A stretch of 54,488 nt of DNA from Thermoplasmata archaeon (GCA_021796895.1 JAKABN010000001.1:1-54488), one strand, 5' to 3'. Positions 9,499 through 16,037 are shown, numbered from the stretch's first letter. Notes: generated by a model not told the origin, from the letters alone. Made by a program: numbers and translations.

Positions 9499-10334
9499 AC
9501 GTATTTGACCATCTTTACTCGGACAGAATACCAGCCCCCCTTCCAGTGTTACGAAGACAGCGGGATACCAAGGACAGACAAGTGCCCGGAGATAACAATA
9601 AGGAGGCACAAGACGTGGTACAGGAGGACGGGGCGGCAGGAAGTCGTAGGACAGCTTCATGGCGCAGTACGGGAGGAGCGTATTCATGATACCACTGGAT
9701 TTGTCGAGGAGCACACTCCCCGGCATGGTCGAATCGGCAGACAGGGAGAAGTCCGGCATGAGATGGAAGGAGTTCAATTCAAGGCGCTTAGAACGGTCGC
9801 TCATGAGGAGTGTCGCAAATGATTGCGATGCGGCACTGAGGGAGCTGGAAGAGCACTGGGCGGCAGTGCAGCATCGTCCGGCATACACGATGTTTTTTGT
9901 TCCCGGAACATGCAGCCGGGGCTCAGCGCGATGGCGCGGCTGCAGGCTGTGATGAGGCAAACACCAGAGTGCGTGAACGTCTGCGGGTCGTCTCAGGTAG
10001 TTCCTGTAAAGATATCATGCTCCTGCAGGGAGGTGTTGAATTCGATCGGTAAATCACTGTACGTTGCATCTGCAGTCATAGTTTTTTTTTTAAATCCCTC
10101 CGAATCCGGTATCCTTTTTCCAACCACTCACTGGCGCATTGGTCCTGGTGCACTCCTTTTCTGCCTTCTTGCAGTTGAAGGCCGCGAAACCCGAATTACT
10201 TCTCTCATTCGGCGGGCGATGAGTCAATCAATGATATTCGAATATCGGGCTGAGTATAGGATTGAGCGGGATGTTTTTAATGTGTGAGGGCAGTTTAGAG
10301 GTGCAAATGAACAGCATCCGCGTGAGGTGAATAA

Positions 10335-11468
10335 GTGTCGGTTAAATTCATTCATACTTCGGACTGGCATATGGGATTGAAATCTTCACATATTGGAGAA
10401 AAATCAAGGGACGCCAGACATAAACGACTTCAGGCCGTGTCATTAATAGCAGATATGGCAAAGGACGAAAGAGTCGACTTTGTCATCATCGCGGGTGACA
10501 TGTTCGACAGCCACAACATTGACGATCGTGCCGTCAGATCAACGGTTGAGGTTCTGAACAGATTTGCACCTGTCAACGTTTTTGTTCTTCCGGGCAATCA
10601 CGACCCTCTCCTCACTGGAGGCATCTGGGACAGAATTGCCTGGAAGGAAGCCGGCAGCCATATCAGGCTGATTACAGAGTCAAAGGAAATTCAGGTTACA
10701 AACAGTGCAGTGCTGTTTCCCTGCCCTGTCACACAGAAATTAAGCAGAACGGATCCGACCGCCTGGATATCCGGGAGAACTGCAGATGACAGGCGAATCA
10801 GGATAGGCCTTGCGCATGGTGCACTGGATGTACTCCCATCTCCAGGCAATTTTCCAATACCATCCGACAGGCAAAATCGTTCCGGCCTGGACTACCTTGC
10901 GCTTGGAGACTGGCATAGCTTCAGGAGGCATGACAGATCTGTTTATCCGGGAACACCTGAACAGACAAGATTTGATGAGGCCGAGCCGGGCAATGTGGTT
11001 ATCGTGCGGATTGATGAAGCTCAAAAAGAACCGGTTCTGACAAAGAGACATGTTGGACAGCTCACATGGCGCGAATATTCAACGCCGGTAAACGACGAAA
11101 CAGATGTTCGTGCTCTGCGTTCCTCGATATACGGCAACCGCGCAGTTTCTGAACAGCTGCTGCGAATCAGAACAGCTCTCGTCCCCGGCATACCTCAAAA
11201 TGCTGTCGATTCTGTGAAATCGCTTCGGGAGGAACTTGCTGAAAACGCATTCTACCTCGACTGGCCTGTGGAGACGGTTGAGTCTCCCATAAACATTTCA
11301 TCTGAATTGCCTGACGGCATCGTGTCGGAAATCGACGGTGTTCTTCAGTCCATCCTTGACGGAAACCATCAGGAAATGCCCGGGAGTTTACCGGTGAACA
11401 TTGACAGTTCTGTTGTGCCAGAAGCGAGAGTCCTCCTCAGGCGATTATACACGGAGGGAAAATCCTGA
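10335..11468 (+). CDS. Calcineurin-like metallophosphoesterase, SbcD/Mre11/YhaO-type nuclease subunit
   Basis: The start is GTG, preceded by GAGGTGA. The phosphoesterase motifs occur in order: HTSDWHMG, IIAGDMFD, LPGNHD, GLAHG, LGDWH. Confidence 0.85.
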   Translation: MSVKFIHTSDWHMGLKSSHIGEKSRDARHKRLQAVSLIADMAKDERVDFVIIAGDMFDSHNIDDRAVRSTVEVLNRFAPVNVFVLPGNHDPLLTGGIWDRIAWKEAGSHIRLITESKEIQVTNSAVLFPCPVTQKLSRTDPTAWISGRTADDRRIRIGLAHGALDVLPSPGNFPIPSDRQNRSGLDYLALGDWHSFRRHDRSVYPGTPEQTRFDEAEPGNVVIVRIDEAQKEPVLTKRHVGQLTWREYSTPVNDETDVRALRSSIYGNRAVSEQLLRIRTALVPGIPQNAVDSVKSLREELAENAFYLDWPVETVESPINISSELPDGIVSEIDGVLQSILDGNHQEMPGSLPVNIDSSVVPEARVLLRRLYTEGKS

Positions 11469-11479
11469 TTCTTGAAGAA

Positions 11480-14155
11480 TTGACAGTTTGTAACTGGCGC
11501 GGATACAGGGAGACTCACAAATTCGGGTTCAGCAGCGGAATAAATCTGCTTGTTGGCAGGAATGAGGCAGGAAAATCAACTCTCTTCGAAGTCCTCACAA
11601 GGTTGCTGTTCGACCGGCACAACTCCAGAACGGAGGAAATCAGGTCTATTCAGCCTATTGGAAGTTCTCTTGGCCCTGAGGCATGGATGGTTTTCAGTGC
11701 CGGCAGCACCAGGTACAGGATTCATAAGCGTTTTCTGCAGGATCCGATGAGTGAACTGCATGTTGAGAGAAACGGTCACTGGGAACTTGATCACAAAGAC
11801 GATCAGGCCGATTCAAGTGTCAGAAGCATCCTCGGCGGTGAATCATCACTCAGGACTGCCGCCAGAGCTGAAAATCGCGGCATTGCCCAGGCACTCTGGT
11901 ATCTGCAGTCAGACGGCGCCATTCCCCAGGGGACATGGAATGAGAGTGTGAGGCAGGGCATTCAGGGTCTCGTGCGCATTGCCGTCAGGTCCGATGCCGA
12001 AGAGAATTTTCTGGATAAACTGGAAACCGAATACAGGAAGTACTGGACGCCAACAGGACTGGAGTTGCAGAAAGGCGAACTCGGTGAAATTAAGGCCGCA
12101 GTATCACGGCTGACGGAGGAATTTTCCGGCATTCAGGCTATTGACAGAAAAATTGCTGTTTACCGCCAGGATCTGGAATATTTGCAGGGACGAAAAAGTG
12201 AAAAGAGCAGGGAGCGGGAAACCGCCTGTGCCGAAATGAAGTCACTTTCCGGAAAGATTGAGGCTGCTGAATCCTTTGAAAAGTCGAAGAGTCAGCTCGA
12301 GAGGGATGTTGAAGGCACAAAGAGAAATCTGGACGAGCTGCGAAGAAATATTTCACTGGTTTCAGGCTACCAGAAGGAAATACGTGAATTCACAAGGGAA
12401 ATGAATTCCCTCGAAAAATCCATTTCCCTGCTGCGGAGTGAAATGGAAACGGCACACGAATCCTCCGAGCGCCATGAGTTTCAGATTCAAAATGAGCTTC
12501 TGCCCGCGCTCAAAAAAGTTGAGCAGGAGCTCAGGGCACTTCAATCCGCAAAGAATTTGAGAACACTTGAAAAGCAGAGGGAACAGCTTGAGAATCATAT
12601 CAAAAAACTGAAGGCGAAGGAGGCGGAGATTGAGCATCTGAAAACCGAACGGTTAAGTCGCCTGTTTCCCACAAACGCCGAGCTGTCCAGGCTCAATAAA
12701 ATTCATGACAAACTTCTGTCCACTGACTCCAAGATTGAGGCCACCGCCATACGTGTTCTCTTCAGATGGCAGTCTAAAGAGAAGAAGATTGTGACCGTCC
12801 CGCCGGCTAAAAATCTGAAGAGTAATGAATTTCTGGTCAGGGAACCCACTGAATTCATGGTGCAGGGAATCGGCACGATTGTTATACGTAGTGATGCAGA
12901 GGAACTCAGGGAACTCACTAAACAATCAAAAACTCTACATAATGACCTTAGTGAGCTGCTCTTAAAACTCGGTGTCAGCAGCAGGGAAGATTTTCTGTCT
13001 CTACATGAGAAAGGCAGGGAGATGGAAAAGAGCATTGAGGCTGCACAAAACAGCCTCGAAGAGCTGACCAGCTCAAATCCTGAAGCGGAAGCGGAGCTTG
13101 CAAGAGTAATCAGGGGTATTGAAGAGGAAAGGCTGGCGGCATCGCATTTTCCTCTTCAGCCTGAAGAGAGGAAGGGCACGCTGATAAGGGAACTGATAGA
13201 GCAGAAAGGAAGAGAGAAGGACAGACTGATTTCTGAAATCGGCATTAAACAGGGCGCCGAAAAGAAGGAGACAAGGAGATTCGAGGAGAGTCAGGGCAAA
13301 CTGATGTCTCTTACAAACAGGCAATCAGAACTCATGGCGGGTAGACAGAGGGATGAGAACGACCTCGATTCCATTTTAGAGATTTATGGCACAGCGGACA
13401 ATCTCTCCAGACTCGTCTCGGAAGCAGAATCGAGGTTTGCAGAAAAGAGCGCGGAACTCGCAAATCTGCTCGGCGGCTACGAGGAAAATGTGGTCAGGCC
13501 GAGAAAGATGTACAGCGAGCTGGAATCTCTCATTGAAAAGCTCAGGGAGCAGATGAACCTCATCGACAATGAAATCAGCGCAAAATCCGCACTTATAGAT
13601 GAGGCCGTAAACAGCGGCAACTATGACCGCGCTGAAATAGTGGAAACCGGGCTGGAAGAGGCAAAGAGCAGACAGCAGGTGCTGCAGAGACGCGCCGAAG
13701 CAGTCAAACTGCTCAAGTCTCTTGCCGACGAGTCCGAGAGGCGCAGATCGCAGGCACTTTCTGCCCCTATCGGGAAGATTGTAAACCCGTGGATAGCCTT
13801 TCTCACAGACGGCGGTTACAACTCGCTCGTGCTTGACGATACGCTGAAGCCTTCGTCTGTTTCAGTGCCTGTGTATGGTTCAGAGATGCCTGTAAACAGC
13901 CTCAGTTACGGCATGCAGGAACAGGTGATTGTTCTGCTTCGCCTCGCAATAGGTGTTGTTGTAAGCAGCGAGAACAGAAATCTGGTGGTGATTGACGACA
14001 GGCTTGTAAATGCCGACACTGTCAGGATGAGGCGTCTTTGCGGAATTCTTGAGGAGGCCGCGAATCACTGCCAGATTGTGATTGCAACCTGCAATGACAC
14101 TCCCTATGCCTCGCTTGGTGCGAAAATCATCCGGGTGCCGTCAGACGGCATGTAG
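11480..14155 (+). CDS. SMC-like AAA ATPase, SbcC/Rad50/YhaN-type, with no zinc hook
   Basis: Walker A is LLVGRNEAGKSTLFEVL. A charged heptad-rich coiled coil of about 650 aa follows. The C-terminal head has LSYGMQEQVIVLLRLAI (signature-like), LVVIDDRLVNAD (Walker B with DD) and QIVIATCNDT. The whole protein has no CxxC. The true start may lie about 5 codons upstream (LILEELTVCNWRGY), which overlaps the sbcD-like stop, but no canonical start codon is present there. Confidence 0.85.
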   Translation: MTVCNWRGYRETHKFGFSSGINLLVGRNEAGKSTLFEVLTRLLFDRHNSRTEEIRSIQPIGSSLGPEAWMVFSAGSTRYRIHKRFLQDPMSELHVERNGHWELDHKDDQADSSVRSILGGESSLRTAARAENRGIAQALWYLQSDGAIPQGTWNESVRQGIQGLVRIAVRSDAEENFLDKLETEYRKYWTPTGLELQKGELGEIKAAVSRLTEEFSGIQAIDRKIAVYRQDLEYLQGRKSEKSRERETACAEMKSLSGKIEAAESFEKSKSQLERDVEGTKRNLDELRRNISLVSGYQKEIREFTREMNSLEKSISLLRSEMETAHESSERHEFQIQNELLPALKKVEQELRALQSAKNLRTLEKQREQLENHIKKLKAKEAEIEHLKTERLSRLFPTNAELSRLNKIHDKLLSTDSKIEATAIRVLFRWQSKEKKIVTVPPAKNLKSNEFLVREPTEFMVQGIGTIVIRSDAEELRELTKQSKTLHNDLSELLLKLGVSSREDFLSLHEKGREMEKSIEAAQNSLEELTSSNPEAEAELARVIRGIEEERLAASHFPLQPEERKGTLIRELIEQKGREKDRLISEIGIKQGAEKKETRRFEESQGKLMSLTNRQSELMAGRQRDENDLDSILEIYGTADNLSRLVSEAESRFAEKSAELANLLGGYEENVVRPRKMYSELESLIEKLREQMNLIDNEISAKSALIDEAVNSGNYDRAEIVETGLEEAKSRQQVLQRRAEAVKLLKSLADESERRRSQALSAPIGKIVNPWIAFLTDGGYNSLVLDDTLKPSSVSVPVYGSEMPVNSLSYGMQEQVIVLLRLAIGVVVSSENRNLVVIDDRLVNADTVRMRRLCGILEEAANHCQIVIATCNDTPYASLGAKIIRVPSDGM

Positions 14156-14348
14156 TTGTGTCATCGCATCAGCTGCCCTGCAGCGCAAAAATCCGCATGG
14201 GCCGCAGAGGCCGGTCAGGGACCACAACCGATCACAAATGACGCAGTCATTTCACGCTTTCTGTATTCCTGTACGAAGATGAAACTGGCAACAGATTATT
14301 ATGGTCTTTGCGGGTTGGCTTGAACAATTACATCCGGAGGGCAGGCAA

Positions 14349-15254
14349 GTGATTGAATGCGCGCAATTGACAAAGAGATATGGCCGCCGGGAGAGGAGAG
14401 CGCTCGATTCGGTAACTTTTTCAGTCCGGAGCAGAGGCATCTTTGTCCTCATCGGCAGAAACGGTTCAGGCAAGACAACCATGGTCAGAATACTTTCGAC
14501 CGAACTCGAGCCCACATCGGGCTCCGCTTCAATTGACGGCGTGGACGTCGTCACAAGCCCTACCGATGTGAGGGAGAGAATAGCCATAGTTCCGCAGGAG
14601 GCAAAGACTGTCAGCTGGATGACGCCGATGCAGACCGCGTCTTCCTATCTCTTATGGCGCGGATTCAGCCGCGCTGAGGCTAAAGCGCGCTCACTGGCAT
14701 CTCTTGAAAAACTGGGAATGGGAAATTCCGCCGACAGTCTCAACAGGACACTGTCGGGAGGCATGAAGAGGAAAGTGCTGGTGGCGACTGTTCTTGCCTC
14801 CGAGGCCGATGTTCTTTTCCTCGACGAGCCCACCACCGGCCTCGATCCCATTTCCAGAAGGGAGTTCTGGAGTATTCTCAGGGAGACTGCAAAGGAACGT
14901 TTTGTTTTTCTGACCACCCACTATCTCGAAGAGGCGGAAGCACTTGCAGACGACATAGGCATTCTGGACAGGGGCAGACTCATACGTATCGGAACACTGC
15001 AGAGCCTCAGGAAGAGCATCGATTACGATTTCAGTCTCAGGATACCGAAGGATCAGGCTGTCTCTCTGCCCCGCCTCAGAAACGGCGAGCTGTTTGACGG
15101 AAGCGAAGACACGCACATCCTGACGGTCGAGGACGAAGCATATGAAATATCCAGGGCACTTGCAAAGGAGGGAAGGCGGTTCACAATAAATCCGGTTTCA
15201 CTCGAGGACATATTTTTCTATCTCATAGTAAAGGAAGGTGAGCAGACTGGTTGA
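14349..15254 (+). CDS. ABC transporter ATP-binding protein (ABC-2 / drug-exporter type)
   Basis: Walker A is GRNGSGKTT, the signature is LSGGMKRK and Walker B is LFLDEPTTGLD. The GTG at 14349 is preceded by GGAGG at 14336-14340. The longer ORF-track start at 14301 is possible. Confidence 0.88.
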   Translation: MIECAQLTKRYGRRERRALDSVTFSVRSRGIFVLIGRNGSGKTTMVRILSTELEPTSGSASIDGVDVVTSPTDVRERIAIVPQEAKTVSWMTPMQTASSYLLWRGFSRAEAKARSLASLEKLGMGNSADSLNRTLSGGMKRKVLVATVLASEADVLFLDEPTTGLDPISRREFWSILRETAKERFVFLTTHYLEEAEALADDIGILDRGRLIRIGTLQSLRKSIDYDFSLRIPKDQAVSLPRLRNGELFDGSEDTHILTVEDEAYEISRALAKEGRRFTINPVSLEDIFFYLIVKEGEQTG

Positions 15255-16026
15255 CGGAAGTGTGGTGACGGACGTCGCGCCGATGAAGAGGAACAGGCTC
15301 AATCAGATACTCGCGTCCCTGTATGTCAACGCTCTGTATGAAATGAAGAACTATCCCGTCGTTCTGCTTAACACGATGCTCTCTCCGCTCTCATTTCTCA
15401 TACTGATTGTGTTCGTCAGCCATGGCAGGCTGATAGGCGAGGCCATTGAGGGCGGTCTGATAATGTCAATGTTCGGAGCCGGGACCTCTCTGCTCACGGA
15501 CATGTCGCACCTGAAGAACGACTTCAAGCTTCAGGACATGGTTGTGAGTTCTCCGGCCACCTGGCAGACATACGTCGCAGGAATGGCCCTTTCAGAAATT
15601 GTCTACTCGCTGCCCGCTCTTGTTGTGCTCGGTACTCTGGCTGCATATTTCATACACACCACGCCCGCAGGCTTTCTCACCATGATAGGTGTGTTTTTCA
15701 CCGTATTCGTCACATCCATTGTAATCGGATACACATTTGCGACATTTTCAAGCGATATCGTCCAGAGCTTTGCCTTCTCGAGGCTGATATCCACCCTGTT
15801 TGCCACCATCCCTCCGGTATACTATCCGATAACCTATGTGCCCCTTCCCTACCGTTACCTTGCCTACCTGTCGCCCACGACATACGCCGCGGAACTGGCA
15901 CAGAATGCTGGAGGATATCTTTCTCTTTCACCGCAGACATATCTCGTCGACTGGCTCGTGCTGATATCCGTCACCGCAATACTATTTGCGGTTGCGAGAA
16001 GGAAGGCAAAATGGAGGGAAACCTGA
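15238..16026 (+). CDS. ABC-2 type transporter permease
   Basis: Six predicted TM helices. It overlaps the end of the ATPase gene by 17 nt and has the size typical of ABC-2 permeases. The start could instead be the Met at 15283. Confidence 0.8.
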   Translation: MSRLVDGSVVTDVAPMKRNRLNQILASLYVNALYEMKNYPVVLLNTMLSPLSFLILIVFVSHGRLIGEAIEGGLIMSMFGAGTSLLTDMSHLKNDFKLQDMVVSSPATWQTYVAGMALSEIVYSLPALVVLGTLAAYFIHTTPAGFLTMIGVFFTVFVTSIVIGYTFATFSSDIVQSFAFSRLISTLFATIPPVYYPITYVPLPYRYLAYLSPTTYAAELAQNAGGYLSLSPQTYLVDWLVLISVTAILFAVARRKAKWRET

Positions 16027-16037
16027 CTCTTATGCAG

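Follow-up and report, generated by a model that had tools for sequence, protein, structure and literature searches.

A hookless Rad50/SbcC-like ATPase with a predicted beta-strand apex and its SbcD-like partner: a conserved gene pair in a Thermoplasmata archaeon and candidate DNA end-processing complex

In a stretch of 54,488 nucleotides from the metagenome-assembled genome of a Thermoplasmata archaeon of the genus Candidatus Sysuiplasma (GCA_021796895.1, JAKABN010000001.1:1-54488; hereafter the window), two adjacent genes encode an SbcD/Mre11-type metallophosphoesterase, the nuclease subunit (377 residues, 10335..11468), and a hookless Rad50/SbcC-like ABC ATPase (896 residues counted from a CTG start, 11465..14155), both on the + strand, as are all window features given below. 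The pair is a conserved, uncharacterised variant of the Mre11-Rad50/SbcCD design, with a beta apex of unknown fold and an unusual ATP site, and in the lineage of its archaeal host it seems to stand in, together with AddAB, for the standard archaeal machinery. The reading that we prefer, with a probability of about 0.6, is that the two products form a translationally coupled complex that processes DNA double-strand breaks and hairpin ends and is built like Mre11-Rad50 and SbcCD. The processing of ends and hairpins is suggested by the gene context, by the status of the pair as the sole complex of its type in Sysuiplasma and by the repair phenotypes of the related SbcE (PMC2811018).

The two genes are real, coupled and conserved. 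A Shine-Dalgarno-like GAGGTG (10324..10329), presumably acting as such, lies 5 nt ahead of the GTG start of the nuclease gene, and the junction between the genes (11453..11468) comprises GGAGGG at 11453-11458 followed by a CTG codon (11465-11467) that overlaps the nuclease stop TGA (11466-11468). Two starts had been considered for the ATPase; an alignment of homologues, in which the consensus MILEEITV corresponds to CTG followed by ILEELTV (CTG-ATT-CTT-GAA-GAA-TTG from 11465), together with the conservation of the junction, makes CTG 11465 the likely start and TTG 11480 the less likely one. The sequence CTGAT is kept at the junction in four of four genomes of the genus, ATGA, GTGA or TTGA is found there in other lineages (sites compared include the window, L088, L089, L090 and L014), and the 4-nt overlap of start and stop is kept across the family. 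Because the CTG overlaps the nuclease stop, follows GGAGGG and is preserved genus-wide as part of CTGAT, translation of the two genes is apparently coupled through a conserved non-canonical start codon. Moreover, the ratio of nonsynonymous to synonymous substitution (dN/dS) against the closest congener (nuclease, 0.125; ATPase, 0.131) indicates purifying selection on both.

The nuclease subunit matched the Pfam profile PF00149 with 50.7 bits and carries motifs I-V (DWH10, GD54, GNHD87, H161 in AHG, and GDWH191), which agrees with the full calcineurin-type motif set read from it in the initial annotation. Its best NCBIfam model was sbcd (TIGR00619), with 64.8 bits and below the cut-off of 77.65, while the scores for all Mre11 equivalog models were far under their cut-offs. 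The closest solved structures are Mre11 of Thermotoga maritima and SbcD of Escherichia coli.

The ATPase matched the Pfam models AAA_15, AAA_23, AAA_29 and SMC_N, the family profile found Rad50 of Pyrococcus furiosus as its top match in the PDB (E 3e-13), and the best NCBIfam match was the archaeal Rad50 model NF003034, with 57.8 bits against a cut-off of 700 and over the N-terminal 110 residues only. Its catalytic motifs are strictly conserved in 46 aligned family sequences, the sample to which the statements on invariance refer. They comprise the Walker A motif GRNEAGKST (11555..11581; G31, K32 and S33 invariant in the numbering of P0001, to which 5 is added for a count from the CTG start); LWYLQ with an invariant Gln (11894..11908), whose position suggests the Q-loop region; the signature motif LSYGMQEQ (13901..13924; family consensus LSxGxxEQ, with S, G, E and Q invariant); the Walker B motif and D-loop VVIDDRLVNAD (13985..14017; D839, D840 and D846 invariant), with Asp-Asp and no Glu; and IATCND at the H-loop position (14081..14098), with an invariant Cys and no His. 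The signature, the Walker B lacking a catalytic Glu and the IATCN had all been remarked on before in the window protein, and each of them proved to be a family-wide character. In P. furiosus Rad50, the family profile finds LSGGE, LILDEPTPYLD and VSHD opposite signature, Walker B and H-loop, so that Glu in Walker B and His in the H-loop are truly replaced; the aligned counterparts of VVIDDRLVNAD are LLILDEPTPYLD in P. furiosus Rad50 and FMDDVLVNMD in Bacillus YhaN. The H-loop site reads TCH, TCF or TCR in the sister and YhaN-like groups and ISH or ITH in canonical Rad50s, and all hookless matches of 880-910 residues have in common LSxGxxEQ, hhhhDD and a TC followed by H, N, F or R.

No CxxC pair occurs anywhere in the ATPase or in the 28 relatives checked, and a profile search with the zinc-hook model PF04423 gave no match in the window's genome. 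The missing hook had been recognised in the initial annotation, whose cysteine count is to be corrected from three before the C-terminal head to two (C9 and C255), with three more inside the head (C859, C869 and C876) and five in total. An AlphaFold model built on the 46-sequence alignment (overall predicted local distance difference test, pLDDT, 83.4) shows a Rad50-like head, a coiled coil and a beta apex, in the order N-terminal lobe, helix of about 220 residues, six short strands, descending arm of about 300 residues and C-terminal lobe. In this model the ascending arm (12077..12745; helices 200-393 and 399-422 of P0001) is broken at the invariant proline P397, the apex (12749..12886; strands 424-469, pLDDT 72-80) is a six-strand beta module in the place of the zinc hook, and the descending arm (12899..13804; helices 474-775) has short breaks; each arm contributes more than 200 residues to the coiled coil. 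The apex modelled alone gave the same six strands (pLDDT 79.7), so that the beta-rich insert first suspected from the sequence recurs in the full and the stand-alone models and is conserved.

When the ATPase model was searched with Foldseek, Rad50 of Mre11-Rad50-Nbs1 came first, followed by Smc5/6, condensin, MukB, JetC and LmuB, while the apex module gave no significant fold match in the PDB (best E-value 1.9). A profile of the apex run against 1.84 billion representative proteins retrieved about 55 proteins of about 900 residues, all at positions 417-486. The presence of the module in other protein families was rejected, the remaining matches being short stretches in long repetitive proteins that were taken as spurious. 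At E <= 0.001 the apex profile misses the sister group P0097-P0103 and the Marinobacter and Corynebacterium proteins, in which a similar beta-rich apex layout can be seen by eye.

These features place the family, on sequence grounds, inside a broad hookless superfamily with SbcE/SbcF of Bacillus subtilis (YhaN/YhaO) and distinct from YhaN proper. SbcE/SbcF acts in double-strand-break repair and transformation, and the central domain of SbcE is hydrophobic and insoluble when expressed (Krishnamurthy et al. 2009, PMC2811018). The two systems are alike in having a phosphoesterase gene upstream of an SMC-like ATPase gene for a protein of about 850-960 residues, in lacking CxxC, in a conserved central domain between the coils, which contains a Pro that is also conserved, and in the head motifs LSxG, hhhhDD, LVNxD and TC followed by H or N. 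For a direct comparison we used a yhaO-yhaN pair from one Bacillus metagenome-assembled genome (MAG), in which a protein of the hookless family is encoded as well. Its YhaO is 25% identical to the window nuclease (E 2e-11), and its YhaN, with the motifs LSTGTREL, FMDDVLVNMD and FFTCHEH, matches the C-terminal head of the window ATPase in BLASTP (E 3e-6). This YhaN scores 57.5 bits against AAA_27 (PF13514) over positions 1-198 of 206, whereas the window ATPase scores 21.7 bits against a cut-off of 22 and over positions 25-54 of 206, i.e., the P-loop only, by which its membership of AAA_27 was ruled out. About 40 hydrophobic residues in succession, resembling a membrane hairpin, make up the center of YhaN, which reads GKWFSTAAFAGALGAIILGEWAAGIFLLLFGTVLYMY, in contrast to the predicted apex of the window ATPase, which is polar, soluble and built of six strands. 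The failure of AAA_27, the beta instead of hydrophobic apex and the coexistence of both types in one Bacillus MAG therefore separate the family from YhaN proper; of the earlier assignment to the YhaO/YhaN type, the head motifs stand, as they are seen in Bacillus YhaN, and strict membership does not. A hydrophobic run of about 40 residues like that of the Bacillus-MAG YhaN (L087:2579-5119) also occupies the central domain of the 795-residue P0116, and since the centers of these two are hydrophobic and that of the family is beta, the hookless superfamily has at least two apex types.

Also close in form are the hookless DD/TCH proteins of about 880-910 residues from Marinobacter, Corynebacterium and the group P0097-P0103, which have the same length and head motifs and no CxxC and differ in an identity of only 20-25% and in having His or another residue after TC, where the window family has Asn; as far as could be found, they are likewise uncharacterised. 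In the sister group, P0104 (1277 residues) has the SbcD-like nuclease and the hookless ATPase fused in one polypeptide, an arrangement similar to the fusions of Mre11 and Rad50 described in connection with Mimivirus R555 (PMC3175470). With the canonical Mre11-Rad50/SbcCD complexes the pair shares an ABC head split by an antiparallel coiled coil and an adjacent calcineurin-type nuclease gene. Unlike them, it has the beta module instead of a zinc hook (CxxC lies near residue 410 in 11 of 11 Thermoplasmata Rad50s), DD instead of DE in Walker B and TCN instead of SH or TH at the H-loop, and, unlike the archaeal herA-mre11-rad50-nurA operon, it has neither herA nor nurA nearby.

The hookless family is rare. 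Clustering at 50% identity divides it into about 55 clusters, whose archaeal and bacterial sources are all uncultured; more than 100 full-length homologues of about 900 residues exist, and NCBI names the Sysuiplasma protein simply 'AAA family ATPase'. When about 186,000 species were scanned, each through a single genome, 49 family loci were found, all in MAGs and spread over many phyla of both domains, among them, in the archaea, Sysuiplasmataceae, Methanomassiliicoccaceae, Methanoculleus, Methanoregula and Methanolinea and, in the bacteria, Acidobacteriota, Planctomycetota, Hydrogenedentota, Gemmatimonadota, Eisenbacteria, Bacillota and others. Of 41 Thermoplasmata genomes, 10 belong to Sysuiplasmataceae, and the ATPase was found in nine of these; of the remaining 31, one has it. 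No paper on the hookless beta-apex family or on DNA repair in Sysuiplasma was found in a literature search.

In a tree of the head domain, in which archaeal Rad50 was the only canonical group, bacterial SbcC being available as a fragment only, the family (support 100/100) groups with hookless proteins of the DD/TCH kind and apart from 11 hooked Thermoplasmata Rad50s, as anticipated by the suggestion that the ATPase is not a canonical archaeal Rad50. Bacillus YhaN has a very long branch in this tree, and its placement is tentative (p = 0.32 in the approximately unbiased, AU, test). The family tree, rooted on the sister group, has bacteria (a planctomycete and Acidobacteriota) at its base, and the clade of the genus Sysuiplasma (support 100) is sister to a mixed bacterial and archaeal clade, while the second Sysuiplasmataceae genus branches elsewhere. 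The Sysuiplasma ATPase is 44-46% identical to its closer bacterial relatives and 33% identical to that of the sister genus in the same archaeal family. The scattering over both domains is in line with the bacterial type in an archaeal context noted initially, and the simplest reading is transfer between domains, likely deep and probably more than once, with a direction that depends on the root. The transfer is old and not a recent import, since the pair and the block downstream of it (S9 peptidase, glutamine amidotransferase and DUF835 protein genes) are syntenic in three congeners, with similarity beginning near 10261. It follows that the insertion sequence (IS) debris and the gene-less stretch upstream mark a rearrangement boundary and not the arrival of the pair; the synteny breaks only upstream of about 10261, and recent acquisition with the IS debris was ruled out, although the initial annotation had found the placement compatible with horizontal acquisition.

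In samples of related Thermoplasmata genomes (10 from Sysuiplasmataceae and 31 from the rest of the class), hooked Rad50 was detected in 0/10 and 17/31, NurA in 0/10 and 20/31, and a match to the zinc-hook model PF04423 in 0/10 and 9/31, respectively. The window-type nuclease was the sole match to the sbcd model in five Sysuiplasmataceae genomes, and the pair is the only set of SbcD-like and SbcC-like genes detected in them. No herA or nurA gene adjoins the pair, as had been stated from the window, and NurA and hooked Rad50 were not found in its genome; we write 'not found' rather than 'absent' because this genome is 78.8% complete. The pair seems to act in their stead.

In an all-against-all comparison of the neighbors at 62 loci only the nuclease and the ATPase were universal; in 11 loci, genes for an AddB-like protein (with C-terminal PDDEXK_1) and an AddA-like UvrD helicase lie directly downstream of the pair (archaeal L042 and L043; bacterial L055-57, L065, L071, L073, L076, L079 and L081), and at L058 RecB- and RecD-like genes lie upstream. 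The addAB- or recBD-linked loci thus number at least 12. As the Acidobacteriota clade at the base of the family tree is represented among them, the older arrangement may have been an operon of four genes for end processing. In the window genome, an addB-addA operon unlinked to the pair is found on contig C171 (L112:2441-6623). The same bacterial-type operon, with addB (about 1000 residues, PD-(D/E)XK) and addA (UvrD helicase and nuclease), occurs in relatives such as G001 (contig C7, L111:1639-7787), again unlinked to the pair. That the Sysuiplasma AddAB was split off from a four-gene operon is unsupported, with 21-29% identity to the family-linked addAB-like genes. In B. subtilis, sbcDC likewise adjoins addBA, as about a quarter of the loci of the hookless family do, and B. 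subtilis has both SbcCD and SbcEF.

From this architecture and gene context we infer a mechanism in which the pair would recognise and trim DNA double-strand ends, hairpins and blocked ends ahead of recombination. Two ATPase heads would bind ATP and close over DNA, and the SbcD-like dimer would cut it. The long antiparallel coiled coils would be joined at their tips by the six-strand beta module instead of a zinc hook, two copies of which would form a permanent joint between the ATPases of the dimer. The Asp-Asp Walker B and the lack of an H-loop His suggest slow hydrolysis and a long-lived clamp, and the AddAB-type helicase-nuclease, whose genes lie at another locus of the genome, would next take over the trimmed ends. 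Complex formation, dimerisation at the apex, the DNA substrates and the hand-over to AddAB are all predictions in this scheme.

Several observations weigh against the end-processing reading. The family is known from MAG sequences alone and its function is predicted; its distribution is patchy across both domains; and some of its loci lie in defence-like islands (with OLD-type nuclease, HNH, BglII and SLFN-type helicase genes) or beside restriction-modification or DNA methylase genes. The Asp-Asp and the missing His could mean little or no ATP turnover. As to the replacement of the canonical system, the window genome is incomplete, a lone HerA-like ATPase is present in congeners, and no more than about two independent lineages underlie the complementary distribution seen in Thermoplasmata. 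Nor is replacement a rule, as Methanoregula and Methanoculleus genomes carry NurA together with the pair, by which strict mutual exclusion was ruled out. The HerA-like protein of the congener G003 (contig C12, L107:1081-2547; 488 residues with HAS-barrel, DUF87 and HerA_C) is encoded next to a metallo-beta-lactamase-fold gene, with no NurA, Mre11 or Rad50 gene beside it, and was not detected that strongly in the incomplete genome of the window. In the Methanoregula genome G044, which has the pair in an operon with addBA, contig C18 holds at about 69-76 kb a NurA match with an SbcC_Walker_B match 6 kb away, which is probably a canonical rad50-nurA cluster.

The main rival, if an unlikely one, is an anti-phage or anti-plasmid defence module that destroys invading linear or hairpin DNA and spreads horizontally, as do Lamassu, Wadjet and Gabija among the SMC-like nuclease systems. 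Such a module would account for 49 loci scattered sparsely over many phyla and for the intermixing of archaea and bacteria in the family tree. It would also suit the company that some pairs keep: OLD-type TOPRIM ATPases at L012 (the locus of P0010), L041 and L050, with HNH, BglII, SLFN-type helicase and MazG genes in addition at L012, an Eco57I-type restriction-modification gene about 4 kb upstream of the pair in S. jiujiangense, and a DNA methylase gene directly upstream in the second Sysuiplasmataceae genus. PADLOC returned weak matches to AriA (41 bits), GajA and LmuB; in PADLOC-DB v2, however, these are partial and extend little beyond the P-loop (GajA: the P-loop only) or the coiled coil, and no known system was matched. 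Against defence also stand the presence of the pair in 9 of the 10 genomes of its archaeal family, its synteny within the genus and its dN/dS of 0.13, as well as the recurrent operon with addAB and the fact that it is the only complex of the Mre11/Rad50 type found in Sysuiplasmataceae genomes. Searches of plasmid and phage collections found no family member in them.

As side observations on these loci, the OLD-type TOPRIM ATPases, of about 650-676 residues, lie within 2.5 kb of the pair (L012:11036-13066, L041:9016-11043 and L050:2651-4600), L012 and L041 have in common an SLFN-type helicase gene and a MazG-like gene, and the methylase of the second Sysuiplasmataceae genus is of the N6/N4 type and encoded on the same strand as the nuclease (L072:3934-4743, L052:3947-4711 and L053:3165-3917).

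A second alternative, which we regard as improbable, concerns the ATP site. Well-studied ABC ATPases depend for hydrolysis to an important degree on the Glu of Walker B and the His of the H-loop, and the replacement of these by Asp and Cys-Asn could mean that the ATPase is impaired and that the pair is an ATP-binding, non-hydrolysing tether or scaffold for DNA, with the nuclease acting alone. However, Asp-Asp is found without exception throughout the hookless superfamily, of which B. subtilis SbcE has repair phenotypes (PMC2811018), and the other residues of the nucleotide site are all invariant in the 46 sequences, which argues for a working, if modified, ATP site. The remaining alternative, a divergent, vertically inherited archaeal Rad50/Mre11 that has lost its hook, is already disfavoured and very improbable, since the matches that speak for it (P. 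furiosus Rad50 in the PDB, the archaeal Rad50 model in NCBIfam) span the N-terminal lobe only and, for NF003034, fall far below the cut-off, while the head tree sets the family with hookless bacterial-type proteins and the bacterial relatives are closer than the sister genus.

The end-processing reading bears on how archaeal recombination is described. Reviews of the field present one end-resection kit, Mre11-Rad50-HerA-NurA, and contrast it with bacterial RecBCD/AddAB (e.g., PMC13748450), whereas here a bacterial-style kit seems to serve a whole archaeal family. Moreover, the pair includes a Rad50-like subunit whose apex domain is without a solved counterpart and whose ATP site lacks two residues held central to ABC catalysis. 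The family may thus offer a compact, soluble model for what an SMC-like apex must do and for how a site with DD and no His works, and it sets apart a subfamily to which present databases give no other label than 'AAA family ATPase'. A bolder proposal, to which we grant somewhat less than an even chance, is that the beta module is a third constitutive SMC-like dimer joint, beside the zinc hook and the SMC hinge, and that in Sysuiplasmatales the pair and AddAB, as a set of bacterial type, have displaced the archaeal Mre11-Rad50-NurA resection.

In the window itself a decayed stretch precedes the pair, and an ABC-2 exporter follows it. The possible link to this exporter that was raised initially was ruled out: the exporter is missing between the same flanks in the congener G003 and is not adjacent outside the genus. 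In G003 (L088) both ABC-2 exporter genes (14186-16033 in the window) are missing and the pair abuts the S9 peptidase gene. Additionally, the ATPase occurs twice in the relative G007 (contigs C51 and C13), and in an Eisenbacteria MAG (L062:5986-8679) the ATPase is split into three open reading frames by frameshifts or assembly errors.

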